The notes under the pieces: model-generated
Database searches by the model: none
What the model was told of the DNA's origin: nothing
What the model saw: only the letters and a program-made list of their open reading frames with translations
In this document: positions 5,445 to 20,543 of the stretch, one piece after another
How positions within the stretch are numbered: position 1 is the stretch's first letter
Layout: each line of letters begins with the position of its first letter
Position numbers and translations under genes: made by a program
Source: Sulfurovum sp.
GTDB taxonomy: Bacteria > Campylobacterota > Campylobacteria > Campylobacterales > Sulfurovaceae
Assembly (NCBI GenBank): GCA_027068435.1
Contig: JAMOTA010000016.1
Span: forward strand, 15,228-79,227
DNA: 64,000 bases
Reading direction: 5' to 3'

Positions 5445-7100
5445 ATGATAGATAACGCTTCGATTGAATCTCTAAAAAACAATATTGACATAGTAGATGT
5501 GATAGGTAATTTTATAGAACTGCGTAAAGCAGGTGCAAACTATAAAGCAAACTGCCCGTTTCATGGAGAGAAGACCCCCTCTTTTGTCGTAAGCCCAAGT
5601 AAACAGATTTACCACTGTTTTGGTTGTGGAGTAGGTGGAGATAGCATTAAGTTTGTTATGGAACTTGAAAAACTCTCTTACCCTGAGTCTATAGAAAAAC
5701 TCGCTTCCATGTATAACTTTTCACTCTCTTACTCTAAAGGTAGTTCAGACTACTCAGATGCAAAAAGGGTGCTTGAGACCATACAGACATGGTATGTGAA
5801 AAACTTAGAGAACAATGATACAGCAAAACAGTACCTCTTAAGTAGAGGTGTTTCACAAAACTCCATAGAACACTTTGGCATAGGGTATGTTCCTGAGGGT
5901 GCTTCAGTAATGCACTTTTTAAATGCTACACTTCTACCCATGCCTAAAGCTATGGAAGCAGGAATCATTGCTCAAGGTGAGAATGGAGGTTTTTATGCTC
6001 GTTTAGTAGAGCGTATCACTTTTCCTATCTTCTCTGCAAGTGGTTCCGTTGTAGGGTTTGGGGGACGTACCATAAGCAACCACCCAGCAAAGTACATCAA
6101 CTCTCCTCAAACTAAACTCTTTAACAAGTCACGTCTGCTTTATGGTTACAACTTAGCAAAAGAGAGTATTTACAAAAACAAAAAGCTTATTGTCTGTGAG
6201 GGGTACCTTGATGTAGTGATGTTCCATCAAGCAGGTTTCACAGAAGCCGTAGCAAGTATGGGAACAGCACTTACTCCTGAACATTTACCCCTCTTAAGAA
6301 AGGGTGAACCTAAAGTTATCTTGGCGTATGATGGAGACAAAGCGGGAGTAGCTGCTGCACTAAAAGCTGCACAGATGTTAGCCATAGCCAACTTCGATGG
6401 AGGAGTCGTACTATTTCCTGATGGACAAGACCCCGCAGACCTCATAGCCAAAGGAGAGAGTGAAGCAGTAGCTAAACTACTTCGTGAAGCCAAACCTCTC
6501 ATACCTTTTGTGTTAGAAAAACTCATTTACAGTTATGACCTAAATGACCCTCGTGCAAAAGAGGCTGCTTTTGGAACAGCTAGACAATTTTTAGAAGGCT
6601 TAAGCCAAATCATCAAAGATGCGTACATCCCTATGGCTGCCACACTTTTAGGCGTAGCTCCTGCACTATTTGGTGGACAGACACAACCTAGTAGAGCAAG
6701 AGAGAGTTTTAGCCAAAGAAAAGATGACATAGCCCAGTTGAGCATACTCAAAACTCTATTAGAAAAACCAGAACTTATAGATAGTGTTCTAGATGTTATA
6801 GATGTCAATATGTTTGGAGGTTACGCAGGACTTTTTTCAGCACTTATCAATGGAGAGAGTGAACAACCACAAGTGAGAAGTTTAGCAGTAGATGAGAGTT
6901 TACAAGTAATGAATGAAGAGGAGTTACAAAGTGTGTTACGTAACTTTCTAATTAGACATTATGATATTAAGCTAAAGGATATTGTAGCAGATAGAGATAT
7001 GCCTTTTAGCAAGAAGAGTTTTTTGATACGTAAAATAAAAGCTGATATAATTCCAAGATTAAAAAAAGGAGAACTAGTAGTCTATGAAACCAACTGGTAA
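5445..7100 (+). CDS. dnaG: DNA primase
   Basis: Start reassigned to ATG 5445 (MIDNASIESLKNNIDIVDVIG); CPFH...HCFGC zinc finger, KYINSPQT, EGYLDV, YDGDKAG TOPRIM. Confidence 0.97.
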   Translation: MIDNASIESLKNNIDIVDVIGNFIELRKAGANYKANCPFHGEKTPSFVVSPSKQIYHCFGCGVGGDSIKFVMELEKLSYPESIEKLASMYNFSLSYSKGSSDYSDAKRVLETIQTWYVKNLENNDTAKQYLLSRGVSQNSIEHFGIGYVPEGASVMHFLNATLLPMPKAMEAGIIAQGENGGFYARLVERITFPIFSASGSVVGFGGRTISNHPAKYINSPQTKLFNKSRLLYGYNLAKESIYKNKKLIVCEGYLDVVMFHQAGFTEAVASMGTALTPEHLPLLRKGEPKVILAYDGDKAGVAAALKAAQMLAIANFDGGVVLFPDGQDPADLIAKGESEAVAKLLREAKPLIPFVLEKLIYSYDLNDPRAKEAAFGTARQFLEGLSQIIKDAYIPMAATLLGVAPALFGGQTQPSRARESFSQRKDDIAQLSILKTLLEKPELIDSVLDVIDVNMFGGYAGLFSALINGESEQPQVRSLAVDESLQVMNEEELQSVLRNFLIRHYDIKLKDIVADRDMPFSKKSFLIRKIKADIIPRLKKGELVVYETNW

Positions 7101-8091
7101 AGTACGTGCATTAGCAATGTTTAGTGGAGGGCTTGATAGTATGATTGCTATTAAGCTTATGGTAGACCAAGGTGTAGAGGTTATTGCCCTACATATCAAG
7201 ATAGGATTTAGTGGAACTAAAGATATCTCTGAAATTATGAAACAACGTGCTAACATGGCAGGTGCTGAGTTTAAAATAGTCGATGTGAGAGAGGAGTATA
7301 TTCAAAATATTCTCTTTGATCCTGTATATGGGTATGGGAAGAACTTTAACCCTTGTATTGACTGTCATGGGTACATGTTCAAAATAGCCAAAGCGATGAT
7401 GCCTGAATTAGGGGCTTCTTTTATCTTTACTGGTGAAGTGATAGGACAACGTCCTATGAGTCAACGCCATGATGCCATGAAACAAGTAGCTAAGTTAGCT
7501 AATGACAGAGAAGATAAGCTTATCGTTCGTCCAATGTCTGCAAAGCTCATGGAAGAGACTACTCCTGAGTTAGAGGGGTGGATAGACAGAGAGAAGCTAC
7601 TTGATATTACAGGTCGTAGCCGTGAACGTCAACTGGCTATGGCAAAAGAGTATGGGTGGGAGGACTATGAGTCTCCAGGAGGAGGGTGTCTTCTGACAGA
7701 GTCTCACTACTCTGAGCGTATTAGTGAGTTTATCAGCTTTGATACATTTGAAGTAGAAGATATAGAACTCCTCAAGTTTGGTCGTCACTTTAGACTTCCT
7801 GATGGTGCAAAACTAGCTGTAGGAAGAAATAAAGAGGATAATGAAGGGTTACAAAACATACAGAGTGATAAGTATGTCATAGTAAAACTCCCTATAGGAG
7901 GACCTTTTTCACTTTTAAGTACAAACGCAAGTAGTGAAGACAAAGATTTAGCAGCAAAACTAGCCATAACATATGCTAAAAGTTCAGTAGAGGATTGCTA
8001 TGATGTTGAGATAGGAGAAGAGACACTAAGTGTTTCACCCTTTGCACAAAAAAGTGAAGCACAAGCCTACTTTTTTAATGCAAAAAATTAA
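7084..8091 (+). CDS. PP-loop ATPase of the tRNA-thiolase (ThiI/MnmA-like) group
   Basis: FSGGLDS PP-loop, NPCIDCH, TGEVIGQRPMSQ, GGGCLLT; overlaps the dnaG 3' end. Confidence 0.75.
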   Translation: MKPTGKVRALAMFSGGLDSMIAIKLMVDQGVEVIALHIKIGFSGTKDISEIMKQRANMAGAEFKIVDVREEYIQNILFDPVYGYGKNFNPCIDCHGYMFKIAKAMMPELGASFIFTGEVIGQRPMSQRHDAMKQVAKLANDREDKLIVRPMSAKLMEETTPELEGWIDREKLLDITGRSRERQLAMAKEYGWEDYESPGGGCLLTESHYSERISEFISFDTFEVEDIELLKFGRHFRLPDGAKLAVGRNKEDNEGLQNIQSDKYVIVKLPIGGPFSLLSTNASSEDKDLAAKLAITYAKSSVEDCYDVEIGEETLSVSPFAQKSEAQAYFFNAKN

Positions 8092-8113
8092 ATTATAATA
8101 ATAAGGAACAAAA

Positions 8114-8392
8114 ATGAAAGCAAGTGCAAGACATATATTGGTTAATAGTGAAGCGTTATGTATGGAACTAAAAGAGAAAATAAACGCTGGTGAGATAAGT
8201 TTTGAGGAAGCAGCAAAAGAAAACTCTACTTGTCCATCAGGTGCAAGTGGTGGAGCATTAGGAACATTTGGTCAAGGTCAGATGGTACCAGAGTTTGATA
8301 AAGTGGTTTTTAATGACGAAGTAGGAGTAGTACACGGTCCTGTGCAGACACAGTTTGGGTATCACCTTCTTGAGATAACAGAGCGTTCTTAA
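8114..8392 (+). CDS. ppiC: Parvulin-type peptidyl-prolyl isomerase
   Basis: ARHILV, STCPSG..GGALG.F..GQMVPEFD, TQFGYHL. Confidence 0.92.
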   Translation: MKASARHILVNSEALCMELKEKINAGEISFEEAAKENSTCPSGASGGALGTFGQGQMVPEFDKVVFNDEVGVVHGPVQTQFGYHLLEITERS

Positions 8393-8409
8393 ACTACTAG
8401 CCTTTACAG

Positions 8410-11370
8410 CTAAAGCTCTGCTGAGATAAGTTCATTTATTACAGATTTTAATACTTTATTAAATCTAGGAATAAGCGTCTTATCTTGGTTTTTATCAATC
8501 TCTTTGCTTATAGAATAAAGCTCCATAGCCCCAATAGTTTGACTTACCCCTTGAATAGTATGTATTGCTAGTTCAAATGCTTCTCCATCCAGAGTATCAA
8601 GTTCAAAATGTTCATAATTTTTTCTAAATACACGAAGTATTTCAAGGTAAAGTTCTCTATCATTTGCCATAAATTGTAAGCCTATTTCTACGTCAATAGC
8701 ATTAAAAGTAGGTATTATCAAAATAGGTTTTTTTGATACATTATGATATTTGTCCTCTTTTATAGAGAGATATTTTAGTAGCATGGCATAGAGTTTGTTG
8801 ACTTCAATAGGCTTATTAAGATGATCATTCATTCCAGCTTTTTTTGTTTTTTCTATATCTTCTTTCATAACATTAGCAGTTAATGCAATGATAGGAATGT
8901 TAGGGTCTATCTCTCTAATATGTTTACTTACTTCAAAACCATTCATAATAGGCATTTGTAAATCAGTTAAAATAAGTTCATATTTATTAAGGTGAAACAT
9001 ATCTACTGCTTCTTGTCCATTATTAGCCATATCTATGAAAATACCACTATGCTGAAGTAACCCTACAATAATCTCTTGATTGATAAGGTTATCTTCTATG
9101 AGTAGAATTTTACTACCTTTTAGTTTAGTAATCTCATCTTCTAGGCTTACTTCATTTTTCTTATATTCTTTTTCTTGTGTGCTACTTTCTATCTCTTTGA
9201 GTGGAATTTCGAAACTAAATACACTCCCCTTTTCAGGTGTACTCTCAACCCATATTTTACCACCCATCAACTCTACAAGTTGTTTAGAGATACTTAAACC
9301 AAGTCCTGTACCTCCATACTCACGACTCGTACTTCCATCTGCTTGAGTAAATGATTGAAAAAGTTTAGCTTGTTGTTTGGTTGTTAAACCTATACCAGTA
9401 TCTGTGATACTAAATTTAAATGTTTTACTATTTACTCTTTTAATGTAAAGTCCTACCTCTCCACACTCTGTAAACTTTACGGCATTTCCAAGAAGATTAG
9501 TAATAATTTGCCCTATTCTTAGACTATCACCAAAGTAGTGTTTATCTGTTTTAATATCATAATTGATAACTATTGCAAGATTCTTTTCATACGCTTTTAT
9601 CTCTACAAGGTGTATAATATTGGTAATAAGTTCAGGAAGATCAAACTCAATCTTTTCAATTGTAAGTTTTCCCGCTTCTATTTTAGAAAAATCTAAAATA
9701 TCATTGATTATTCCTAAAAGAGATTTGGCACTATAGTCTATTTTCTGAATATAATCTTTTTGTTTATCACTAAGATTTGTTTTCAGTGCTAAATGTGTCA
9801 TACCCAAAATACCATTCATCGGTGTTCTTATCTCATGTGACATATTTGCCAAAAAATCACTTTTTAACTTGGTATTATCTTCAGCTTTTAATCTTGCTAA
9901 TTCTAGTTTCTTATTTACGCAGATAAGCTCTTTTGAACTCTCTTTGGCAAGATAAGTTTGATGCTGTAAATCTATATTTTGTTTTCTATTTTTTTCTATC
10001 TCTTTTTCTAAAGCTATTTTATCTGTAATATCAAGACGAATAGCAATATAGGCTTCTATATTACCGTGTCTGTCAAACATAGGTTCTATATTTGCATCTA
10101 CCCAATAATACCCTTCTAATTTTTTACGATTTTTTACTTGTCCTTTCCATGTTTTACCTTGTTGTATGGTACTCCACATATTTTTAAATACTTCTTTTGG
10201 CATACTAGGGTCTCGTATAATATTATGTGGTTTACCAATCAATTCACTTTTATCATAACCTGCTATTTTACAAAAAGCAACACTTGCATCTGTAATCATC
10301 CCTTTAATGTCGGTAGTAGAACTAATGATATACTTATCTATTAAACTTTTAAGCCTAGATTCATTGGCAATAAGTTTTAAGATAAGATGTATCATAAACA
10401 TAAAAATAAGAAAGCTAATAAACCCAAAGAGTATAAATAAAAAAAGATTCATTTTAGTGTCTTGAAGTTCTGTTTGAATTTTCATATTAATTTGTTTAGC
10501 GAGATAATCATCAATCATTTTAAGGATATCTACTTTTTTAGTACTATCTGTAAACCAATTAATAATATTTATTTTTTTAATTTCATCTATTTTTCCACTC
10601 AAGATAATTTCATTCATAATAGATACATCATCAATCTCTTTACCCTTAAAATAGTTATAATAGTATATTCTAGCATCTTCTGAAGCGTACTGAAGAAAAA
10701 TTTCTCTGCGTAAAAGTTCTTTTTCTATATTGCTGTTAAATTGATTGATTGTAATTTGATTGATAATCTTATCTGATAAAATTGCTGTACCAATCGCACG
10801 TTCTATCCCTGCATTTTCTTTAGAGTACAAAAAGTTACTATAAGCAATAATATTTTGTGCCATATTAGAAAAATTTGACATTTTAGAGATTTCTATAATA
10901 ATTTTTAAAATCTGTTTATTAATATTAGAGTAGTAAAAAAGCATATTATTTTTAGAGATAGAAAAAGTTGAGATAGAATATCTCATCATCTTTATTTTTG
11001 AAAGTTGTTGCAACACTTTTTCTAATGTTATTTTAATAGTAGTAAAAGTATAGGCTTTTTGATTGTTTTTTATAAACTTGGTTAATTCAGTAATCTCTTT
11101 ATCGGTTTCAACCCTTCGTGCATCCAATACTTCTTTAAATTTTTTACCTGATGTACCTAAAAAACCTACAGATAATCCTCTTTCTATCTGTGTAACGTGT
11201 AGGAGTTTAGAGAGTTTTGTAGAAAGAACTATATTATTTTCCAAACGTACAAGAGATTGATATTTAGTATATTTAATTGTAATAAGAAAAGTAATAGTAA
11301 TAAAAAACATAATAATAAGTATAATACTAGGCAGTGTAAATTTTATTTTATTTTGTGATTTTTGATTCAT
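8410..11370 (-). CDS. Hybrid sensor histidine kinase (NIT nitrate/nitrite-sensing domain, 2 TM, PAS, HisKA, HATPase, REC, Hpt)
   Basis: NIT-like QIERGLS and KENAGIERA motifs between two TM helices; PAS (GKPHNI, KGQVKNRKK..YYWV); NMSHEIRTPMN; GGTGLGL; LTDLQMP; HTIQG. Confidence 0.88.
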   Translation of the reverse strand: MNQKSQNKIKFTLPSIILIIMFFITITFLITIKYTKYQSLVRLENNIVLSTKLSKLLHVTQIERGLSVGFLGTSGKKFKEVLDARRVETDKEITELTKFIKNNQKAYTFTTIKITLEKVLQQLSKIKMMRYSISTFSISKNNMLFYYSNINKQILKIIIEISKMSNFSNMAQNIIAYSNFLYSKENAGIERAIGTAILSDKIINQITINQFNSNIEKELLRREIFLQYASEDARIYYYNYFKGKEIDDVSIMNEIILSGKIDEIKKINIINWFTDSTKKVDILKMIDDYLAKQINMKIQTELQDTKMNLFLFILFGFISFLIFMFMIHLILKLIANESRLKSLIDKYIISSTTDIKGMITDASVAFCKIAGYDKSELIGKPHNIIRDPSMPKEVFKNMWSTIQQGKTWKGQVKNRKKLEGYYWVDANIEPMFDRHGNIEAYIAIRLDITDKIALEKEIEKNRKQNIDLQHQTYLAKESSKELICVNKKLELARLKAEDNTKLKSDFLANMSHEIRTPMNGILGMTHLALKTNLSDKQKDYIQKIDYSAKSLLGIINDILDFSKIEAGKLTIEKIEFDLPELITNIIHLVEIKAYEKNLAIVINYDIKTDKHYFGDSLRIGQIITNLLGNAVKFTECGEVGLYIKRVNSKTFKFSITDTGIGLTTKQQAKLFQSFTQADGSTSREYGGTGLGLSISKQLVELMGGKIWVESTPEKGSVFSFEIPLKEIESSTQEKEYKKNEVSLEDEITKLKGSKILLIEDNLINQEIIVGLLQHSGIFIDMANNGQEAVDMFHLNKYELILTDLQMPIMNGFEVSKHIREIDPNIPIIALTANVMKEDIEKTKKAGMNDHLNKPIEVNKLYAMLLKYLSIKEDKYHNVSKKPILIIPTFNAIDVEIGLQFMANDRELYLEILRVFRKNYEHFELDTLDGEAFELAIHTIQGVSQTIGAMELYSISKEIDKNQDKTLIPRFNKVLKSVINELISAEL

Positions 11371-11497
11371 ATTACATTATAGTATATTTAATATTAAGAT
11401 GTAAATATCAGAAAAAACTTAATTAGTAAAAAATTATATTACAACTCTTTCATTACTATTTATAGATATAATCTCAAAAAATTATGAAGGATTAATT

Positions 11498-11977
11498 ATG
11501 ATGACAAGTAATGATATGGATCAAATACGTGATTTATTGATTGGTGATTTTTCTCAAGAGATAAAAAATCAACTTAAAGTCTTAGATGAAAGACTCACAC
11601 AACTTCATGAAGATAACAGACAAGATATAGAAACACTCTCTACTACACTTGATGCAAAAATCAATAAAATATATAAAATTTCTAATGAAAAGACTGAATC
11701 TCTTAAACTCATGATTGAACAACGTCTAAATGAGCAAAACAGTATTACACAAGATGAATTTACATCCATAGAAAATAGACTCAATACCCAAAATATCTCT
11801 ACACAAAAAGCATTAACACTTCTAAAAAGTAGAGTTGATGCTAATATTACCTCTTTACAAGAAGATAACAACCGTAAAAATGTATCTAAGGAGTCGTTAG
11901 CAAGTCTCTTTTTAGAGTATTCACTTAAACTAAAAGACACAAGCCTAGCAGATAAAATCAAAGATAAGACAAAGTAA
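11498..11977 (+). CDS. Coiled-coil hypothetical protein (first gene of the small-GTPase operon)
   Basis: 159 aa, heptad-rich; AAGGA RBS; its stop codon abuts the next ATG (11977/11978). Confidence 0.75.
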   Translation: MMTSNDMDQIRDLLIGDFSQEIKNQLKVLDERLTQLHEDNRQDIETLSTTLDAKINKIYKISNEKTESLKLMIEQRLNEQNSITQDEFTSIENRLNTQNISTQKALTLLKSRVDANITSLQEDNNRKNVSKESLASLFLEYSLKLKDTSLADKIKDKTK

Positions 11978-13939
11978 ATGTCGGAACAATATATCAAACT
12001 AAAATCACTGCTTCTTCAAGAGGAGATGGATAAAATCCAAACGCTTACACAAGATATAAAAGCGTTAGAGCAGATACAAGAGAAAGATATATTGGTAGAG
12101 AGACTCTCTCACATAATTACAGATATTTTAGCCAAAAGTTTACAAAATAATCAACAACAACTCTATGCTACACTACAACCTCTTTTGTCTAAAAGTGTAA
12201 CAGATGAACTCTACAGGTCTAAAGATTTACAAAAAATACTTTTTCCTATTATCACTTCTGCTATACATGAACAAGTACATCAGCAAAAAGAGTCTATAGT
12301 AGATGCTCTTTATCCTATTATGGGTAATATGATTAGTAAATATGTGAGTAGTGCATTTACAGATATGATGCATGAGATAAACAATAGACTTCAATCTTCA
12401 CTCTCATTTTCACGTGTGAAAAGAAAAATAAAGTCTAAAATTTATGGTGTAAGTGAAGCTCAACTTTTACTCCAAGAGACAGACTTTGTAGAGATAGAGA
12501 CCGTATTTTTAATTCATAAAGAGTCAGGACTTCTGATAGTAGATTTACATAAAGAGGAGAATCAAAAGATAGAAGAGGTCGAAATGGTTGCTTCTATGTT
12601 AAGTGCCATCAGGAGTTTTGTAAACGACTGGATTAGCAATGACAAAGAGATGAATGAGATACGTGAGATAGAATATAGTAACTCATCTATTAGCATAGAG
12701 AGTGCAGGAAGCTGTTACTTAGCTGTAGTAACAAGTAACCATGCAGATATGAAAGATACGCTATCTAAAGTCCTCTCACGTGTTGTTTCAAAACATTCAC
12801 AAGAGTTATCTGAATATGATGGAGATACAAGTAAAATTGATATTAACCATATCAAAGCGATACTCTCTACACTCTTTGATAAAGAGAAAGATACCACTCA
12901 AGATAAATTTCCAATTCTTGGAGCTTTAGTACTTTTTGGACTATTAGTACTACCTCTAGGATGGTATGGATATAACTACTATAAAGAGTATATTATAGAA
13001 CAAAATGAGATGAAAATTGATTCTCTGTTAAAAGAGAATCATATCAAAGTTTACGATCTTGATATTCAAACAACTAAAGAGCATAATGCAATATTAAATG
13101 GTATCGTTTTATATCAAGAAGATCAAGAAAAAGTAGATGTGGTTTTAAGAGGGTATCCTCATACTAACCAGATAAACTCCATAGATAGTAACTTTAATAA
13201 AAACCATAGAGTAGTACTACTAGATAAACTCATACATGCAATCAATGAGAAGTATCACTCAAATATCAGCTATACAAGATACTACAATAAGCTAAGATTT
13301 ACAGGTCTATTGGTTGATGAAAAAAATAGAGAAAACTTTATTACTCAAGTAAATATAATACTTGATAATGAAATACCTCTATTTAATATAGAAGTTTTAT
13401 CTCCTTCTGTTAAAAAAATCGTTAATGAGACAAACAAGAAATATCGTTCCAATATCACTTACCATCAAGCGTTTGATAAGGTACGTTTTTCAGGAATAAT
13501 TATTGATAAAAAAGCAAAAGATACATTTATTTCTAAAATTCAAATAGAAATTGAGAAGAGTAAAATAATCAATGAAATAAAAGTTTTACCTACATTAAAA
13601 TATAAAATCTATTTTGATTTAGGTTCTTCTACTATTGATTCTAAATATGATAAGATATTAGACAAATTAACTTCTATAATAAATAAATATAGTCATTATT
13701 ATATAAAAATTAATGGATATACAGATGATAAAGGTTCAAGTTTCATCAATAAAAAATTATCTTTAAATAGAGCTAATAACATTAAGCAAGAGCTTATAAA
13801 TAGAGGAATTAAGAAGAATATGCTTATGATAAAAGCCGTAGCAAAACCACCAATAGAGATAGAAAATATTCAAGATAAAGATAAAGAGTCTCTCTCTCGA
13901 TGTGTTATGTTTAATTGGGAGATTTCTAGTGAGAAGTAA
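11978..13939 (+). CDS. Single-pass membrane protein: helical N-terminus, putative longin/roadblock-like domain, TM, BON-like repeats, C-terminal OmpA peptidoglycan-binding domain
   Basis: TM FPILGALVLFGLLVLPLGWYGY; OmpA motif IYFD.GS...GYTDDKGS..N..LS..RA...R.V; two 53-aa internal repeats at 13241-13399 and 13430-13588. Confidence 0.8.
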   Translation: MSEQYIKLKSLLLQEEMDKIQTLTQDIKALEQIQEKDILVERLSHIITDILAKSLQNNQQQLYATLQPLLSKSVTDELYRSKDLQKILFPIITSAIHEQVHQQKESIVDALYPIMGNMISKYVSSAFTDMMHEINNRLQSSLSFSRVKRKIKSKIYGVSEAQLLLQETDFVEIETVFLIHKESGLLIVDLHKEENQKIEEVEMVASMLSAIRSFVNDWISNDKEMNEIREIEYSNSSISIESAGSCYLAVVTSNHADMKDTLSKVLSRVVSKHSQELSEYDGDTSKIDINHIKAILSTLFDKEKDTTQDKFPILGALVLFGLLVLPLGWYGYNYYKEYIIEQNEMKIDSLLKENHIKVYDLDIQTTKEHNAILNGIVLYQEDQEKVDVVLRGYPHTNQINSIDSNFNKNHRVVLLDKLIHAINEKYHSNISYTRYYNKLRFTGLLVDEKNRENFITQVNIILDNEIPLFNIEVLSPSVKKIVNETNKKYRSNITYHQAFDKVRFSGIIIDKKAKDTFISKIQIEIEKSKIINEIKVLPTLKYKIYFDLGSSTIDSKYDKILDKLTSIINKYSHYYIKINGYTDDKGSSFINKKLSLNRANNIKQELINRGIKKNMLMIKAVAKPPIEIENIQDKDKESLSRCVMFNWEISSEK

Positions 13940-14429
13940 ACAAAAAAAAATTATTTTAATAGGAAACTTTTCTGTAGGAAAAACTTCTCTTATTAGGCGT
14001 TATGTTGACAATAGTTTTGATGATAAATATATTAGTACCATAGGTCTAAAAATATCTAAGAAGAGTATCTCTATAGAAAATGAAGAGATGATTCTTCTTA
14101 TATGGGATATTGAAGGAGCATTAGATAAAGTAAGAAGAGTAAACAAAACATATATTAAAGGTGCTCACGCAGCTATTATTGTTACTGATGTTACATCAGA
14201 AGAGATAGAAGAGACTATTAAAATACATCTTAATGACCTCTATGATGTAACGGGTGAGATACCTGTAATTATAGCCTTTAATAAAATTGATAAAAATGAA
14301 AACTTTCAAATGGATATTACATCTTTACAAAATAATTACCCTTCTCTTATAGGTTCTTGTCTTACTTCTGCAAAAAATAGTTTTAATGTCAATACTTTAT
14401 TTAAACTTCTTGCAAGTGAGCTAGTCTAA
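13929..14429 (+). CDS. Rab/Ras-like small GTPase (stand-alone, about 166 aa)
   Basis: G1 GNFSVGKT, G2 YISTIG, G3 WDIEG, G4 NKID, G5 SAK. Start reassigned to GTG 13929 (GGAG 7 nt upstream; 11-bp overlap with the previous gene). Confidence 0.9.
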   Translation: MRSKQKKIILIGNFSVGKTSLIRRYVDNSFDDKYISTIGLKISKKSISIENEEMILLIWDIEGALDKVRRVNKTYIKGAHAAIIVTDVTSEEIEETIKIHLNDLYDVTGEIPVIIAFNKIDKNENFQMDITSLQNNYPSLIGSCLTSAKNSFNVNTLFKLLASELV

Positions 14430-15556
14430 TGCCCATAAATTATGAAGCTTTATGTGACTTTATAATAGATGAGTACAAAATTGCTTATATTATAATAGAT
14501 AATTCTTTTTTAGTTAAATCTTTTTCACCTATGGTAGAAAACTTTTTTGATAATAGACTCATAGTAGATTGTGATATAAGAAACTATTTCTATGAATTTA
14601 TTGGGTATGAGGATGACTTTAATGCCATAAGTACACAACAGCAAAAAGAGTTTCATCTACTCTCTGTAAATAAAAATAGTTTTTATCTTGATATTCATGT
14701 TGAAAAATTTGATGAGAGTGGAACTTTAGTTGTATTTGTCACAGATGTAACAGAACGTATGCATGCACAACAACTACTCTTACAAGATAGAAACCAAACA
14801 GAACTACTCTCAAGAGAACTTATTTATAAAAGTAAACAAAAAGATAAAATGATGATGTTACAGTCACGCCATGCACAAATGGGTGAGATGATTAGCATGA
14901 TAGCCCATCAATGGAAGCAACCACTTACTGTTATCTCTATTTTAATGCAAAGTATTTATATCAAATTTCTTACAGGTAAACTAAATGAAAATCTTATGGA
15001 AAATTTTCAAAAAGATACCCAAGAGCAGATACAGTTAATGTCACATACCATTAATGATTTTAAAGATTTTTTTAAACCAGAAAAAGAGAAAAAAGACTTC
15101 AATGCAACAGAGACTATTCATCACGTTATAAAACTTCTTCATCCTCTTTTGGAAGATAAAAAAATTCATATAGATACAACTCTTTTAGAAAATGTTGTAA
15201 TTTCAGGGTATTCCAATGAATTTGCACAAGCGTTGATTAATATTTTCACTAATGCTAAAGATGCTTTAGCACTATTATCTGATAATAAACCAAAGATTAT
15301 AAAAGTCTATACCATACAAAATAAAGAGACTATCTCTATTATCATTGAAGACAACGCTGGAGGAATTCCTAATAAAGTTATAGATACTATATTTAATCCT
15401 TATTTTTCCACTAAAGAAAAAGGTACAGGTCTAGGACTATATATGAGTAAAATGATTATAGAAGAGTATATGAATGGACATATTACTGTAAAAAACAGCA
15501 TAGATGGTGCTATCTTTACTATTAGTTTAAAATTAGTGAATCTTATTCATTCGTAA
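14429..15556 (+). CDS. Soluble PAS-like sensor histidine kinase
   Basis: PAS-like N-terminus ending VTDVTER; H-box MIAHQWKQPL; N/D/G boxes (NIFTNAKDA, DNAGGIP, KGTGLGLYMS); TAATG overlap with the GTPase gene. Confidence 0.88.
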   Translation: MPINYEALCDFIIDEYKIAYIIIDNSFLVKSFSPMVENFFDNRLIVDCDIRNYFYEFIGYEDDFNAISTQQQKEFHLLSVNKNSFYLDIHVEKFDESGTLVVFVTDVTERMHAQQLLLQDRNQTELLSRELIYKSKQKDKMMMLQSRHAQMGEMISMIAHQWKQPLTVISILMQSIYIKFLTGKLNENLMENFQKDTQEQIQLMSHTINDFKDFFKPEKEKKDFNATETIHHVIKLLHPLLEDKKIHIDTTLLENVVISGYSNEFAQALINIFTNAKDALALLSDNKPKIIKVYTIQNKETISIIIEDNAGGIPNKVIDTIFNPYFSTKEKGTGLGLYMSKMIIEEYMNGHITVKNSIDGAIFTISLKLVNLIHS

Positions 15557-15626
15557 GCTCACTTTATATTACTGCTATTTTTTAACTTAAATATGATTAT
15601 AATACCCCATTATTACACTTTAAATT

Positions 15627-17363
15627 TTGGAGTACCTTTTGCGTTTATTATCTTTTCTTTTACTTTTGTTTTTTCTACAATCTCCTCTTATTGCTCAAAC
15701 GTTGTCTATGGAAAATATCTCTCTTAATATTAAAACCTCTCTTCCTAGCCTAATAAAAGGGAAAAATAGAGCTATCGTTCAAAATCTTTATGATCAAACT
15801 GAATACAAAGCATTATGGATAGGAGAGAATAATAGAGAGAAAATGAGTCAACTTGTACAAGCACTTAGCAACCCTCTTTTTAACTATAAAGATAAATCTT
15901 TTGACCAAAAAACTATAGCACGTCTCTTTTTCATGTTAGATAATGAAGATATAAGCAGAAAGAAACAAGCTGCTGTGTATGCAAGACTTGATCTTATACT
16001 AAGTAATTCTATGGTGCGATTGGTGCGATTTATTGTGCAAGGAGATGTAGATTGGAACTTAGTACAACGTAAATTTCAAGCCCTTAAAGAGAGTGATGAT
16101 ATTAAAGCCACATGGGAGATGTCATATAAATCATTTCCTAGTGAAACTGTACTTTTTTCTGCTATAAAAAATGGAAATATACGTTCGTATCTTCAAACAC
16201 TTATACCTATGAAAACAAGATATATTAATTTAGTTGACTTGTTAAAAGACTATCGTATCATGGATAAATTTCCAAAAATAAAATATACAAAAAGACCACT
16301 AAAAATAGGCAATAGAAATGCCCTTGTAAAAGAGGTAAAAAAACGCTTACAAATTTCAGGTGACTATCCCAAAAATACTTCCTTAAACAGTACTTTTGAT
16401 GAGACACTACAAGAGGCAGTAAAAAGATACCAAAAACGCTACTTGCTTAAAATCACAGGTATGGTAGATAAAACAATGGTCTATTATTTAAACCAATCTG
16501 TGAAAAAAAATATTCAAGCTATTATTACTAACTTAGATAAAACAAAACTCTATCCTAAATCTTTTGAATCAGAGTATGTAGAGGTAAATATTCCTGACTT
16601 TAACCTTCGCTACTATAGAGGAGGCAGAAAAATCATGAAAATGGGTGTTGTTGTTGGGCGTACAGATAGACCTACACCTCTTTTCCATGATAAGATAGAG
16701 TACATGGTAATCAATCCTACATGGACGATTCCAAATAACCTTATTAAGAGAGATTTGATTCATGTACTAAGAGAGAACCCATCATACCTAGAAGATAATA
16801 ACATTCATGTATTTTCAGGTAAAAAAGAGATACAAATTACCCAAGATATGTTAAACCCTTATGAACACAATCAAAAGCATGTACCTTACCGTTTTGTTCA
16901 ATTTCCAGGAGATAACAACGCTTTAGGTCGTATTAAATTTATGTTCCCTAACAAGTATGCTGTTTATCTTCATGATACAGACAACAAAACCCTACTTAAA
17001 AGACGTTATAAAGTTTATAGCTCAGGGTGTATGAGAGTAGATAAACCTTTTAAACTAATGGATATGCTATTGAAAAGTTCCCATAAAAGTTATTCACAAC
17101 ATGAACTACAGGAAATTATTGATACAGATAAACCTACAACTATAAAATTACGTAAAGCTATACCCGTGCATATACTCTACTTTACTGTCTATAAAGAGGA
17201 TGGTTTAGCCTACTTTAAAAACGATATTTATATGTATGATCAAATTATAGAAGAGTCTATATTAGGTCGTCAGAAATCTACTTTTACTGTACCTAAAAAA
17301 AGACTCATCTCCATAAAAAAACAAACAAATTCACAAACACTTCCACAAAAAAATAAAAACTAA
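15627..17363 (+). CDS. L,D-transpeptidase (YcbB/LdtD-like) with peptidoglycan-binding domain
   Basis: Signal peptide, PG-binding segment (LQEAVKRYQKRY), VNIPDF, NPTWTIP, VYLHDT...SSGCMRV. Confidence 0.88.
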   Translation: MEYLLRLLSFLLLLFFLQSPLIAQTLSMENISLNIKTSLPSLIKGKNRAIVQNLYDQTEYKALWIGENNREKMSQLVQALSNPLFNYKDKSFDQKTIARLFFMLDNEDISRKKQAAVYARLDLILSNSMVRLVRFIVQGDVDWNLVQRKFQALKESDDIKATWEMSYKSFPSETVLFSAIKNGNIRSYLQTLIPMKTRYINLVDLLKDYRIMDKFPKIKYTKRPLKIGNRNALVKEVKKRLQISGDYPKNTSLNSTFDETLQEAVKRYQKRYLLKITGMVDKTMVYYLNQSVKKNIQAIITNLDKTKLYPKSFESEYVEVNIPDFNLRYYRGGRKIMKMGVVVGRTDRPTPLFHDKIEYMVINPTWTIPNNLIKRDLIHVLRENPSYLEDNNIHVFSGKKEIQITQDMLNPYEHNQKHVPYRFVQFPGDNNALGRIKFMFPNKYAVYLHDTDNKTLLKRRYKVYSSGCMRVDKPFKLMDMLLKSSHKSYSQHELQEIIDTDKPTTIKLRKAIPVHILYFTVYKEDGLAYFKNDIYMYDQIIEESILGRQKSTFTVPKKRLISIKKQTNSQTLPQKNKN

Positions 17364-17365
17364 CA

Positions 17366-17848
17366 CTACTTTTTCTTACGCATTTTCACTCTTTGAAGAT
17401 GCGTGATAGCTATTGCCATAGCATCGGTAATATCTAAAGGCTTTATCTCTTTTTTTATGTTGAACAATCTCTTTACCATAAATGCAACTTGTTCTTTGGT
17501 TGCTTTTCCATTTCCAGTGACTGCTTTTTTTACCTGTAACGCTGTATATTCATGAAAAAAACCTACCTCTTGAAGTATTTTTAAACACAATGCTCCTCTA
17601 AACTGTGCAAGTTTTATCACCGACTTTGGATTATATGCAAAAAAGATATCTTCAATAGCTACTTCATCTACTTTGTGTGTCTTTAAAATAAGGTCTATCC
17701 CCTCAACCATCTCAACTATTTGTGTCTGTAACTCTTTCTCTTTCATTTTAAGTAAACCAGCTTCAATAAGTGAAAACTTTTTTCCATCCCAATTTATGAT
17801 ACAGTAGCCTAAATTACGGCTTCCTGGGTCTATTCCTAATATATTCAT
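17366..17848 (-). CDS. ruvC: Holliday junction resolvase
   Basis: [39 protein letters not shown]. Confidence 0.97.
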
Positions 17849-17943
17849 TCACACCTTTGTTCACATGGTGAATAACTTTATTCACCACTGTTTAATACCC
17901 TTATTTTAGCTTATCTTTGTTAAACTATTAAAAGTTATTCACA
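17845..17943. promoter_or_regulatory. oriC1: DnaA-box cluster upstream of dnaA
   Basis: TCATTCACA 17845-17853, TTGTTCACA 17857-17865, TTATTCACC (minus) 17867-17875, TTATTCACC 17878-17886, TTATTCACA 17935-17943. These match the epsilonproteobacterial TTCAC-core DnaA box. Confidence 0.85.
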
Positions 17944-17969
17944 TAATAGTTATTATATAGGGTTTACAC

Positions 17970-19298
17970 ATGAATATTGGACAAAAAGTACTTTTTGAGC
18001 TTAAAAAAGAGATTAGTGAAACAGAATATGAACGTTACATAAAAAAACTCGTTTACGATACAACACATTCAAGAAGTAATATGATTTATTTTAATGCACC
18101 AAATATGATTATTGCAAAGTGGGTGAAAACAAAGTACTTAGATAAAATGATACATCTTTTTGAACTTCAAAATGAAGTAAGACCTAAGATAGAGATAAGT
18201 GTAGGTAAGAAGCAAGTACAAAACAGTAGTGTACAGCAGAAACAACCTTTAGAAAAAAGTAATACTAAAAGCACTTACTTAAACCCTTCTTTAACTTTTG
18301 AAAGTTTTATCGTAGGTGATTCTAACCAATTTGCCTTTACCACTGCCAAATCTGTAGCAGAAAAACCAGGTAGGCAGTATAACCCTCTTTTTATCTATGG
18401 TGGGGTAGGTTTAGGTAAGACCCATTTACTTCAAGCCATAGGTAACTACCATTTAGAGTTAGGTAAAACAGTTATTTACACTACACTTGAACAGTTTATG
18501 AATACCTTTACTTCTCACCTACGTTCTCAAACGATGGATAGATTTAGAGATAAATTTAGAGAGTGTGATTTGTTACTTATAGATGATATACAGTTTCTGA
18601 GCCGTAAAGAGCAGACTCAAGAGGAGTTTTTTCACACCTTTAATGAACTATATAATGCCAACAAACAAATAGTTATCACTTCAGATAGACAACCTAATAA
18701 AATAGCTGGTTTAGTAGATAGACTTAAAAGTCGTTTTGAGTGGGGACTGATGGCAGATATTCAACCTCCTGGACTGGAGACTAAAATTGCTATTATTCAA
18801 AAGAAATGTGAATTAGATGGTATTAATCTTAACTCTGAAATCGTAAACTTTATTGCTACAAATATGGGTGATAATATACGAGAGATAGAGGGAACTATTA
18901 TTAAACTTAATGCTCTATCTTCTATGTTAAATCAAGAGATTACTTTAGATTTTGCACAAAATGCTATAAAAGATCAACTCAAAGAGAAAAAAGAGAATAT
19001 TACCATAGATGATATAGTAAAAATAGTCTCTATAGAACTCAATATTAAACCTTCTGATATAAAATCGAAAAAACGTACTAAAAATGTAGTAAATGCTCGT
19101 AGAACTGCCATATATTTAGCACGTAACCTTACACCAAATTCTATGCCTCAAATTGCTCTATATTTTGGCATGAAAGATCATACTGCTATCTCTCATGCTA
19201 TGAAAAAAATACATGAAATTATAGACCAAGATGAAAACTTCAAAGTATTATTAGAAGAACTTTCAAATAAAATACATACAAACACTAAAATCTTATAA
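17970..19298 (+). CDS. dnaA: Chromosomal replication initiator
   Basis: YNPLFIYGGVGLGKTHLL, LLIDDIQFL, RLKSRFEWGL, KDHTAISHA. Confidence 0.99.
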   Translation: MNIGQKVLFELKKEISETEYERYIKKLVYDTTHSRSNMIYFNAPNMIIAKWVKTKYLDKMIHLFELQNEVRPKIEISVGKKQVQNSSVQQKQPLEKSNTKSTYLNPSLTFESFIVGDSNQFAFTTAKSVAEKPGRQYNPLFIYGGVGLGKTHLLQAIGNYHLELGKTVIYTTLEQFMNTFTSHLRSQTMDRFRDKFRECDLLLIDDIQFLSRKEQTQEEFFHTFNELYNANKQIVITSDRQPNKIAGLVDRLKSRFEWGLMADIQPPGLETKIAIIQKKCELDGINLNSEIVNFIATNMGDNIREIEGTIIKLNALSSMLNQEITLDFAQNAIKDQLKEKKENITIDDIVKIVSIELNIKPSDIKSKKRTKNVVNARRTAIYLARNLTPNSMPQIALYFGMKDHTAISHAMKKIHEIIDQDENFKVLLEELSNKIHTNTKIL

Positions 19299-19475
19299 AA
19301 CTTACTTATAAGATTTGAATATAAAAAAAGATATAATTTTAAAAGTGAATAAAGGTGAATAGTTAAATAAACTTTTACCATTGTTAAACAACGTGTATAG
19401 CGTCTTTAAAGTAGTTTTTCACATTTTCATGGAGAACTACTACTATCTACTATAATATTAAAAATAAGGGAATCT
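19299..19475. other. oriC2: DnaA boxes, AT-rich unwinding region and DnaA-trios between dnaA and dnaN
   Basis: Minus-strand boxes at 19344-19352 and 19354-19362; TTTTTCACA at 19415-19423, followed by GGAG and the trio-like run CTACTACTATCTACTAT (19437-19453). Confidence 0.8.
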
Positions 19476-20543
19476 ATGAAGATTAAAGTAAAAAAGCAAA
19501 TTATAGAATCAATTCTTATCAATCTACAGCCTTTTTTAGAAAAAAAAGATGCTAGTCAAATTACTGCTCATATACTCTTTATTGCTTCAAATGATAAGTC
19601 TATTATCAAAGCATCAGATGGGGAGATAGGATTACAAATAGTTACTGAATATATAACTATAGATTCAGAAGGATCATTTACTGCTAATGGAAAAAAACTA
19701 TTAGACATTATTAGAATTTTAAAAGATGATGAAATAACATTAGAAGTTATAAATGATATATTAATTATTAAACAAAAACACTCTAAATTTAAACTTCCAA
19801 CATTTAATCCAGAAACCTACCCTAAATTTCCATCAGCAGAAAACAAACCAAAAATTACATTAGATTCTTTAAAACTTATTCAAAATCTTAAAAAAATTTC
19901 TCCTGCAATAGATAATAACAATCCTAAGTTTGAACTTAATGGAGCATTAATCAATATTAAAAGTAACTCAACTGATTTAGTAGGTACTGATACAAGAAGA
20001 TTAGCTATTGCTACTATTGAAAGTTTAAATGATGAAGAGCGTTCATTAATAGTTCCTAAAAAAGCTATTTTAGAGATACAAAAACTTTTTTTAGATGAGA
20101 TAGATATTTTTATTGATGAAACCAATTTAATTATTACAAATAAAAATTACTTTTTCTTTACACGTTTAATAAATGGTAAGTATCCTGATTATCAAAGAAT
20201 TATCCCTACTATGATTAAACATGAAGTTACTTTACCTAAAAAAGAGATGATAGATGCTATTAAAATGATTACTACTATTTCTCAAGAGATTAAAATAACT
20301 TTAACTGAGCATGCTATTTTATTTAACTCATTAAGTGCAGATAATGTTGAAGCTAAAACAGAATTAGATATAGCTACAGGAATTACTGAAAACTTTGAAC
20401 TTAGCTTTAATAGTAAATATCTTTTGGATTTTATTTCACAAATTGATACTACAGAGTTTACTATAGAATTCAATGAAACATCACTACCCTTTATCGTTAG
20501 AAACGGTACTTTTATTACTATAATCATGCCTATTGTTGCATAA
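19476..20543 (+). CDS. dnaN: DNA polymerase III beta clamp
   Basis: Position after dnaA; VGTDTRRLA, RLINGKYPDYQRIIP, C-terminal IIMPI. Confidence 0.97.
   Translation: MKIKVKKQIIESILINLQPFLEKKDASQITAHILFIASNDKSIIKASDGEIGLQIVTEYITIDSEGSFTANGKKLLDIIRILKDDEITLEVINDILIIKQKHSKFKLPTFNPETYPKFPSAENKPKITLDSLKLIQNLKKISPAIDNNNPKFELNGALINIKSNSTDLVGTDTRRLAIATIESLNDEERSLIVPKKAILEIQKLFLDEIDIFIDETNLIITNKNYFFFTRLINGKYPDYQRIIPTMIKHEVTLPKKEMIDAIKMITTISQEIKITLTEHAILFNSLSADNVEAKTELDIATGITENFELSFNSKYLLDFISQIDTTEFTIEFNETSLPFIVRNGTFITIIMPIVA

Follow-up and report, generated by a model that had tools for sequence, protein, structure and literature searches.

The DNA analysed here is a stretch of 64,000 nucleotides from Sulfurovum sp. 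(contig JAMOTA010000016.1; the whole stretch is called the window below, and all positions refer to it unless another locus is named), and our subject is a block of four consecutive, co-directional and translationally coupled open reading frames on its + strand, at 11498-15556. The first (11498-11977) encodes a cytoplasmic coiled-coil protein of 159 amino acids (aa), the second (11978-13939) a bitopic membrane protein of 653 aa, the third (13929-14429) a stand-alone small GTPase of 166 aa and the fourth (14429-15556) a soluble PAS-HisKA-HATPase histidine kinase of 375 aa. In the published nomenclature discussed below these are DUFY, DUFX:OmpA, Rup1 (Group 1 Rup) and the output of the module. 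The stop codon of the DUFY gene (TAA, 11975-11977) abuts the ATG of the DUFX gene at 11978; the GTPase gene starts with a GTG at 13929, preceded by GGGAG, and overlaps by 11 bp the DUFX gene, which ends with TAA at 13937-13939; and the GTPase and kinase genes are joined through TAATG at 14427-14431. A second possible start for the GTPase, the GTG at 13902, would lengthen the overlap with the DUFX gene. Scans for promoters and terminators were uninformative in this AT-rich DNA, where 44 promoter-like sites were found versus 38 expected.

A preliminary description of this DNA had called four coupled genes at these coordinates, and both the reading frames and all three junctions can be read in the sequence. 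We searched the four window proteins against Pfam and NCBIfam, and the domain content that had been proposed for three of them agrees with the assignments obtained. The second protein carries a Pfam OmpA domain at residues 545-622 and a single transmembrane (TM) helix at 311-333; the third is a stand-alone GTPase with all five G motifs (GNFSVGKTS, the T of YISTIG, WDIEG, NKID and SAK); and the fourth is a soluble kinase with HisKA and HATPase_c domains according to Pfam and with a PAS domain that was recognised through its AlphaFold2 fold and Foldseek, not through Pfam. DUFY, the first 540 residues of DUFX and the first 140 residues of the kinase gave no match in Pfam or NCBIfam.

Small GTPases of prokaryotes fall into two families, MglA and Rup (Wuichet & Søgaard-Andersen 2014, Genome Biol Evol 7:57; PMC4316618). 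MglA proteins have a G3 motif of the type TVPGQ or GTPGQ and are coupled to MglB/Robl_LC7 proteins, encoded at a distance of no more than four genes, while Rup proteins have the canonical DxxG and are not coupled to MglB. In the same study, Group 1 Rup proteins were found in the neighbourhood DUFY > DUFX:OmpA > Rup > kinase or GGDEF output, where DUFY is a cytoplasmic coiled coil, DUFX is a conserved domain of unassigned fold, often accompanied by a TM helix and OmpA, the Rup protein lacks the G3 Gln, and the N-terminal region of the output (GGDEF/EAL or histidine kinase) has a conserved Gln which was proposed to be lent to Rup in trans (PMC4316618). The hypothesis that Group 1 Rup proteins act in a membrane signalling complex was already made there, and Table S2 of that work includes SUN_0835 of Sulfurovum NBC37-1. 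In later analyses the group was named Rup1, and it clusters tightly with eukaryotic Rab/Ras/Rho/Ran and with Asgard RasL.

The locus almost certainly belongs to this Rup1 system, with which it shares the four components, their identical order, a Rup protein without G3 Gln and a Gln-bearing N-terminus in the output. The novelty that the preliminary description implied for the four-gene operon is thus lost, since the arrangement, with a Sulfurovum example in the table, was already in print as Group 1 Rup (PMC4316618). Its statement that the system is uncharacterised survives in the experimental sense, as no bench study was found in the literature searched, but not otherwise: the system was catalogued in 2014 together with the same hypothesis. 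Keyword searches, and searches with locus tags of members from Nostoc, Anabaena, Cyanothece and Sulfurovum, returned no experimental study of any Rup1 protein. The window copy differs from the published description in several respects. Its output is a plain orphan HisKA kinase, while the surveyed relatives from Campylobacterota have mainly GGDEF outputs, and its DUFX contains an extra periplasmic repeat of 63 aa. Further, PMC4316618 gave no fold for DUFX or for the N-terminal region of the output and expected no cooperation of Rup with MglB-like proteins, while longin/roadblock-like and PAS folds are predicted here; and the Gln, invariant in that description, is less conserved in our alignment than a neighbouring Asn.

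To define the extent of this arrangement we scanned for DUFX one genome per species, which yielded at least 570 loci (species representatives), and surveyed the neighbourhood of the best 80 of them, all from other species, by calling open reading frames and searching these with iterated profiles of each window protein. The 80 loci come from Campylobacterota, Cyanobacteria, Chlorobi and Sericytochromatia. Counting among them those with enough flanking sequence, DUFY lies directly upstream of DUFX on the same strand in 71/74, Rup lies directly downstream of DUFX in 67/72, and a protein with the N-terminal domain of the kinase comes next after Rup in 63/66. The recurrence of the four-gene arrangement is far beyond chance, and a gene-neighbourhood survey of the kind that the preliminary description had called for thus finds the same order in most of the loci. 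The 63 outputs comprise 26 GGDEF proteins, 21 histidine kinases and 16 proteins with other or unrecognised domains.

The module is nevertheless patchy, and not core content of Campylobacterota, as had also been anticipated. DUFX was found in 6 of 41 relatives (the window genome counted), and all six have a stand-alone Rup; one further genome, 78% complete (G008), has a Rup on a 3.9-kb contig, 32 of the 41 lack both DUFX and any Rup match, and in another two the matches are to long Roco-like GTPases only. Within the genus, Rup occurs in 4 of 24 genomes, at no more than 48% identity. The closest relatives of DUFX among the matches listed (81% and 79% identity) are in unclassified metagenome-assembled genomes (MAGs) of Campylobacterota. 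The GC content of the window is 26-29% at 10001-16000, versus 31-40% over most of its length. This low GC content, the patchiness in the genus and the position of the nearest relatives outside named Sulfurovum suggest that the cassette may have been acquired horizontally. One locus of the survey, L087 (JBLNEP010000080), is labelled as an Actinomycetota MAG, and its cassette lies amid cyanobacterial sequences, beside Kamptonema and Microcoleus, on the tree of PAS domains described below; this nesting hints at misbinning or at recent transfer.

The GTPase matches the Pfam families Ras (E 3.5e-27) and Roc (E 6.2e-25), and its top relatives of solved structure are Rab1A, Rab35 and Rab1B (E about 1e-22). 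Its G3 motif is WDIEGA, with Ala at the position of the catalytic Gln, Phe and Ser occupy the positions of G12 and G13 of Ras, and the C-terminus (...ASELV) contains no Cys. The Rab-like rather than MglA-like character that had been read from its motifs is borne out by the DxxG in place of TVPGQ or GTPGQ, by the absence of a Robl_LC7 neighbour and by the Rab1/Rab35 relatives. Among the 67 Rup proteins adjoining DUFX, G3 reads WD[ILV]EG followed by a variable residue, which is H, S, R, K, A or others and is Gln in 8/67. With no Gln of its own and a bulky Phe in place of Ras G12, the window protein would be expected to hydrolyse GTP slowly unless a partner supplies a catalytic residue. It is 43-52% identical to the Rup proteins encoded in loci of this arrangement in Sulfurovum and elsewhere in the Campylobacterales, which lends indirect support to its placement in Group 1, and it is the only stand-alone Rup of the window genome.

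Three other assignments of the GTPase were considered and rejected. It does not belong to the MglA family, as its G3 is WDIEGA and the sole Robl_LC7 gene of the genome is on a different contig; it is not a Roco protein, in which Roc is joined to a COR domain and usually accompanied by LRRs, as it is a stand-alone protein of 166 aa in which the Roc match is limited to the G domain; and it is not a eukaryotic Rab proper, as it has Ala in place of the switch-II Gln and no C-terminal Cys for prenylation. The sole Robl_LC7 (MglB-like) gene, at 1426-1836 of locus L098, encodes 136 aa and is followed at 2312-2677 by an open reading frame of 121 aa whose product, on visual inspection, also resembles a roadblock protein. 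The window's genome yielded no MglA-type GTPase, and the 2014 table likewise has an orphan MglB in Sulfurovum (PMC4316618).

Downstream of the GTPase, the kinase contains HisKA at residues 151-218 and HATPase_c at 263-369 (Pfam). H160, in the sequence AHQWKQPL, the N-box, G1 and G2 are all present, which suggests that the kinase should be catalytically competent; it has no receiver domain. Its N-terminus has no Pfam match and, by sequence, reaches just E 0.2 to 3fg8 and 3a0v. We modelled residues 1-150 with AlphaFold2, using 62 homologues, and obtained a confident model (predicted local distance difference test, pLDDT, of 94) in which a PAS fold at residues 5-106 is followed by a single long helix at 108-149. 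Foldseek matched this model to PAS domains, including 3fg8, FixL and YF1, with E values from 1.6e-5 to 1e-3, and the matches include chimeras of PAS and kinase with equal geometry of PAS and linker. By its modelled structure, the N-terminus of the output is a PAS fold of divergent sequence continued by a linker helix.

This PAS domain is specific to the module and covers kinase residues 1-107 (14429-14749). An alignment of 63 sequences shows E56 and G59 to be invariant and Y20, E61 and Y86 to be conserved in at least 90%. The linker helix, residues 108-149 (14750-14875), carries a stripe formed by Q115, Q119, N122 and L126, which are spaced i, i+4, i+3, i+4 along it; Q119 is found in 55/63 sequences, N122 in 59/63 and L126 in 61/63. 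The 'invariant glutamine' described in PMC4316618 probably corresponds to Q119.

A tree of these PAS domains indicates how the output has changed. The window kinase pairs with a GGDEF protein (from locus L020; 42% identity) with a support of 93 in the Shimodaira-Hasegawa-like approximate likelihood ratio test (SH-aLRT), and over the tree the type of output has switched at least four times. In addition, a Sulfurovum locus of another genome of the genus (L012 of G013, 5751-11698) contains one DUFY-DUFX pair followed by a Rup-histidine kinase pair and then by a Rup-GGDEF pair, and the genes within each of these tandem pairs overlap or abut. One membrane platform of DUFY and DUFX may therefore serve two GTPase branches in this locus. 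The swapping of outputs, together with the tandem pairs, implies that the PAS domain belongs to the Rup module and that the enzymatic domain is exchangeable. The PAS domain or its linker would then be the site of action of Rup, and the output swapping is the strongest indirect argument for this.

The other candidate partner of Rup is DUFX, which begins with a cytoplasmic part and, after a single TM helix, continues in the periplasm with a BON-like region, repeats and the OmpA domain. It has 276 close homologues, chiefly from Campylobacterota, and its cytoplasmic core is found in 3707 clusters (50% identity) with E<=1e-10. The core has no Pfam model and no match to a PDB sequence below E 0.9, and in an alignment of 56 sequences 15 of its columns are invariant. 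We modelled residues 1-340 with AlphaFold2, using 49 homologues. The mean pLDDT of the model is 68.8, and about 52-91 per 10-residue block at residues 173-300. Long helices extend to residue 167, and residues 173-300 (12494-12877) form an alpha/beta domain with the order strand-strand-helix-strand-strand-strand-helix-helix, where the strands span 173-180, 186-191, 229-233, 236-243 and 246-252 and helices span 201-220 and 259-278; in the model, these five strands and the order of the elements correspond to the alpha/beta sandwich with a five-stranded sheet that characterises longin/roadblock folds. When this core was compared with the PDB by means of Foldseek, nearly all of the 50 matches listed were longin or roadblock domains or subunits of their complexes. 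The best of those listed is the longin domain of Sec22b (TMt 0.70), and others are the C-terminal domains of RagA/C, LAMTOR, AP sigma, zeta-COP, TRAPP, Mon1-Ccz1 and dynein LC7. We therefore predict, with moderate confidence and at the level of fold only, that the cytoplasmic core of DUFX folds as a longin/roadblock domain.

The motif with the highest conservation in DUFX is located N-terminal to this domain, in the helical repeat region. In the sequence DALYPIMG (residues 109-116, 12302-12325), L111, Y112, P113 and G116 are invariant and D109 and A110 are conserved in at least 90% of 49 sequences; an alignment of 56 sequences across phyla shows no variation at D, L, Y, P and G, and at least 90% conservation of the A. 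The model has a pLDDT below 50 at residues 109-127. The motif is part of a repeated L-x-P-h-h-x-x-x-I/V pattern at about residues 60-140 (12155-12400), represented by LQPLLSKSV, LFPIITSAI and LYPIMGNMI, and the DUFX proteins of Cyanobacteria, which are 800-1150 aa long (e.g. those of L082 and L034), have more copies of the repeat and give 2-4 overlapping profile matches. This N-terminal repeat could be a membrane-surface or protein-binding repeat. DUFY, for its part, has a conserved N-terminal motif, DQIRDLLIG, and a conserved C-terminal helix (SKESLASLFLEYSLKLK).

The TM helix of DUFX, recognised as a hydrophobic stretch at residues 311-333 (FPILGALVLFGLLVLPLGWYGYN; 12908-12976), is found at 313-339 in the model, with a pLDDT of 80-94. 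Beyond the membrane, residues 340-410 approximately (12995-13207) constitute a degenerate BON-like region that aligns with the Pfam BON domains of three relatives (P0050, P0028 and P0104); BON is found in 28/49 DUFX homologues, while the window DUFX itself has no Pfam BON match. Residues 437-499 (13286-13474) are an insertion of 63 aa, an in-frame second copy of the periplasmic repeat unit, which is the sole gap in the alignment with an 86%-identical relative of 590 aa (P0002); the internal repeat score is 97, versus a mean of 34 (standard deviation 6) for shuffled sequences. Relatives of 590 aa without the duplication are 81-86% identical, and the 653-aa form is also found in P0003 and L019. 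The OmpA-like peptidoglycan-binding domain (residues 545-622, 13610-13843; Pfam OmpA E 4.9e-15) is covered as well by NCBIfam matches of the YiaD, Pal and MotB types. It retains the D/G/N/R motif for binding of peptidoglycan (GYTDDKGSSFINKKLSLNRA) and a later Arg, and these columns are near-invariant.

These data can be assembled into a mechanism, in essence that of PMC4316618 refined through the predicted folds, in which we infer every protein-protein contact, the direction of the signal, the signal itself and the substrate of the kinase. The bitopic DUFX would be fixed to peptidoglycan via its periplasmic BON-like and OmpA part, and on the cytoplasmic side, probably together with the coiled-coil DUFY, would offer a longin/roadblock-like platform. 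This platform would bind Rup and set its nucleotide state or its location, acting as a guanine nucleotide exchange factor (GEF), as a GTPase-activating protein (GAP) or as a scaffold, and Rup would hydrolyse GTP slowly unless a partner donates a catalytic residue. Rup-GTP would dock on the PAS domain or the linker helix of the downstream protein, and the linker helix would switch the output, which here would be autophosphorylation of the orphan HisKA kinase at H160 and in most relatives the GGDEF cyclase. The stripe of Q119 and N122 may be the catalytic residue given to Rup in trans. We consider the mechanism, taken as a whole, to be evenly poised between right and wrong; the best explanation of the locus overall, a member of the Rup1 system that works by such a mechanism, is in our view probable. 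The preliminary description had proposed an envelope-anchored GTPase switch that relays to two-component signalling, and such a switch, to two-component or cyclic di-GMP (c-di-GMP) signalling, fits the evidence; the 'polar position' that it was said to report finds no support here.

Several observations weigh against this mechanism. The longin/roadblock assignment of DUFX comes from one AlphaFold2 model of moderate confidence; it has no Pfam match even in permissive scans and no PDB sequence match in a profile search, and an hhalign comparison of DUFX with three Robl_LC7 proteins of Campylobacterota gave a probability of 0.7%. As for the catalytic residue, Q119 is not invariant, being Lys in a GGDEF clade of Sulfurimonas and Arcobacter, and Q119, N122 and L126 could pack inside the linker of a PAS-kinase dimer instead of forming an exposed face for docking or catalysis. 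No response regulator adjoins the kinase, and the sole receiver domain encoded anywhere in the 64-kb window belongs to an unrelated NIT hybrid kinase; no response regulator was found beside the histidine kinase outputs of the other loci either, although 9 of the 21 are hybrid kinases with a receiver domain of their own. Finally, the literature search found no work on interaction, nucleotide binding or phosphorylation for any member.

A first alternative is that the module serves localisation in the manner of MglA, that is, that Rup-GTP does no more than bring the kinase or cyclase to a fixed, peptidoglycan-anchored site, for instance at a pole or septum, and leaves its catalytic rate unchanged. 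The anchoring of DUFX through its OmpA and BON-like parts, its long helical part and the coiled coil of DUFY would suit such a role, small GTPases and roadblock partners set polarity in Myxococcus, and the outputs, being soluble, need a route to the membrane. However, the same PAS domain and linker helix are always fused directly to the catalytic module, which is the usual layout for allosteric control and not for a mere tether, and Rup does not resemble MglA, as it has DxxG, lacks the context of the intrinsic Arg finger and has no adjoining MglB. We consider this alternative unlikely.

The signal might also flow in reverse, as proposed for conservons: the PAS kinase or cyclase would sense a cytoplasmic cue and act on Rup as a GAP or regulator, Rup would control DUFX, and Rup and DUFX would be the output, with the periplasmic OmpA part altering the envelope or its attachment to peptidoglycan. 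PMC4316618 takes the lack of a response regulator in conservons as an argument that their GTPase is the output, and the kinase here has no adjoining response regulator either; moreover, PAS is a typical sensor domain, and the stripe of Gln and Asn on the output could serve a GAP function. But the outputs, whether histidine kinases, GGDEF proteins or hybrid kinases with a receiver, are intact and diverse, which would be odd if they were GAPs only, and the module-specific PAS domain is inherited together with Rup even where the enzyme behind it has been exchanged, as would suit a domain that receives its signal from Rup. Reverse flow is, to our judgement, improbable.

It is very improbable that the locus is an anti-phage or conflict system, or a stator or Tol-Pal-like energy-transducing unit that resembles a signalling module: its patchiness even within the genus, the slightly low GC over 10-16 kb and weak PADLOC matches to ZorB/MotB and LeoA point that way, but those matches are to a generic OmpA domain (ZorB, E 5e-6) and a generic P-loop (LeoA, E 8e-5), on which ground we dropped the defence reading, and there is no nuclease or toxin effector, no mobile-element gene flanking the locus and no partner of the MotA/ExbB/TolQ type, while DUFX has a single TM helix and the fourth gene is always a signalling enzyme.

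The genes that flank the cassette were also considered as parts of it. A divergent gene at 8410-11370 on the - strand encodes the NIT hybrid kinase (986 aa, NIT-PAS-HisKA-HATPase-REC with a C-terminal extension), and its matches in the 80 loci are to generic kinase and receiver domains only. On the other side, 70 bp downstream of the kinase gene, 15627-17363 (+) encodes an L,D-transpeptidase of the YkuD type (578 aa, with Scaffold and PG_binding_1 domains). A connection of this enzyme with the OmpA protein is a tempting idea, but none of the 80 related loci contains a homologue of it. We rejected both neighbours as components of the module. Further on, at 17366-20543, there are ruvC (-), dnaA (+) and dnaN (+), and the cumulative GC skew rises from about 20 kb; this adjacency and the turn of the skew place the cassette near the likely replication origin.

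The favoured reading, a Rup1 module in which a peptidoglycan-anchored platform acts through Rup on a PAS-controlled enzyme, invites comparison with other GTPase systems. Actinobacterial conservons (CvnA-D; Komatsu 2006, via PMC4316618; PMC12236503, PMC8510531) likewise combine a Ras-superfamily GTPase, a histidine kinase and a roadblock-type partner with no response regulator, and both systems have been proposed to be membrane signalling complexes resembling G proteins. In conservons, however, the GTPase is of the MglA family (GTPGQ) and the kinase resides in the membrane itself, while the window GTPase is Rup1 (WDIEGA) and its soluble kinase is accompanied by a distinct OmpA protein as the membrane component; and conservons have no coiled-coil DUFY. 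Conservons are marked by CvnB (Robl_LC7), CvnC (DUF742) and the membrane kinase CvnA with its LPxR tail, and membership of the locus in this class was rejected, since none of the four window proteins matches Robl_LC7 or DUF742 and the kinase is soluble. The MglA/MglB pair of Myxococcus and Thermus shares with the module a stand-alone GTPase, a roadblock-fold partner (predicted, in the case of DUFX) and a link to two-component signalling. It differs in the TVPGQ and the intrinsic Arg finger of MglA, as against a G3 in the window protein that is a DxxG without Gln, and in that MglB is a free Robl_LC7 protein, while the DUFX platform is fused to the TM helix and OmpA and has no sequence similarity to Robl_LC7.

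Platform domains of the longin/roadblock type are binding partners and regulators of small GTPases both in eukaryotes and, in the form of MglB, in bacteria. The likeness of the module to eukaryotic Rab and Rag proteins with TRAPP, Mon1-Ccz1, Ragulator and GATOR1 consists in Rab1 and Rab35 being the best solved relatives of the GTPase and in the resemblance of the DUFX core, as a predicted fold only, to the longin/roadblock platforms of these GEFs and GAPs. In contrast to them, the window GTPase has neither a Cys for prenylation (it ends in SELV) nor a catalytic Gln, its partner is an inner-membrane protein tied to peptidoglycan and its effector is a kinase or cyclase and not trafficking machinery. 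A further parallel is offered by Rap, which lacks the Gln and to which RapGAP supplies an Asn in trans, the 'asparagine thumb'. By analogy, N122 or Q119 of the partner of the likewise Gln-less Rup is a candidate for a residue acting in trans, although these residues may instead be structural, and the PAS and linker region has no homology to RapGAP.

Beyond the published description, what we add are the predicted longin/roadblock fold of DUFX, put forward with moderate confidence, the predicted PAS fold of the output N-terminus, and at least four switches of output type, as judged from the tree of PAS-domain sequences. The window copy itself adds little to this; its use is as a compact variant, with an orphan histidine kinase as output and a single Rup, and as the basis of the fold predictions. 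A broader interpretation, which is possible though on balance doubtful, is that DUFX is a membrane-anchored longin/roadblock platform, so that the module would represent a bacterial pairing of a Rab/Ras-like GTPase with a longin/roadblock protein and a transmembrane pathway from receptor to G protein to effector in which an Asn or Gln is lent in trans by the linker helix. If this were true, bacteria would already possess the pairing of GTPase and longin/roadblock regulator that is seen in TRAPP, Mon1-Ccz1 and Ragulator, and would use it to sense the cell wall or periplasm and, via a dedicated PAS adaptor, to drive a kinase or a c-di-GMP cyclase. Rup1 is the bacterial GTPase group that clusters most tightly with eukaryotic Rab/Ras/Rho/Ran. 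The way in which such a Gln-less, Rab-like switch is loaded, hydrolyses GTP and is read out, once shown, would define a second design of bacterial G protein beside that of MglA and the conservons, and this knowledge would bear on the origin of the eukaryotic pairs of GTPase and regulator.

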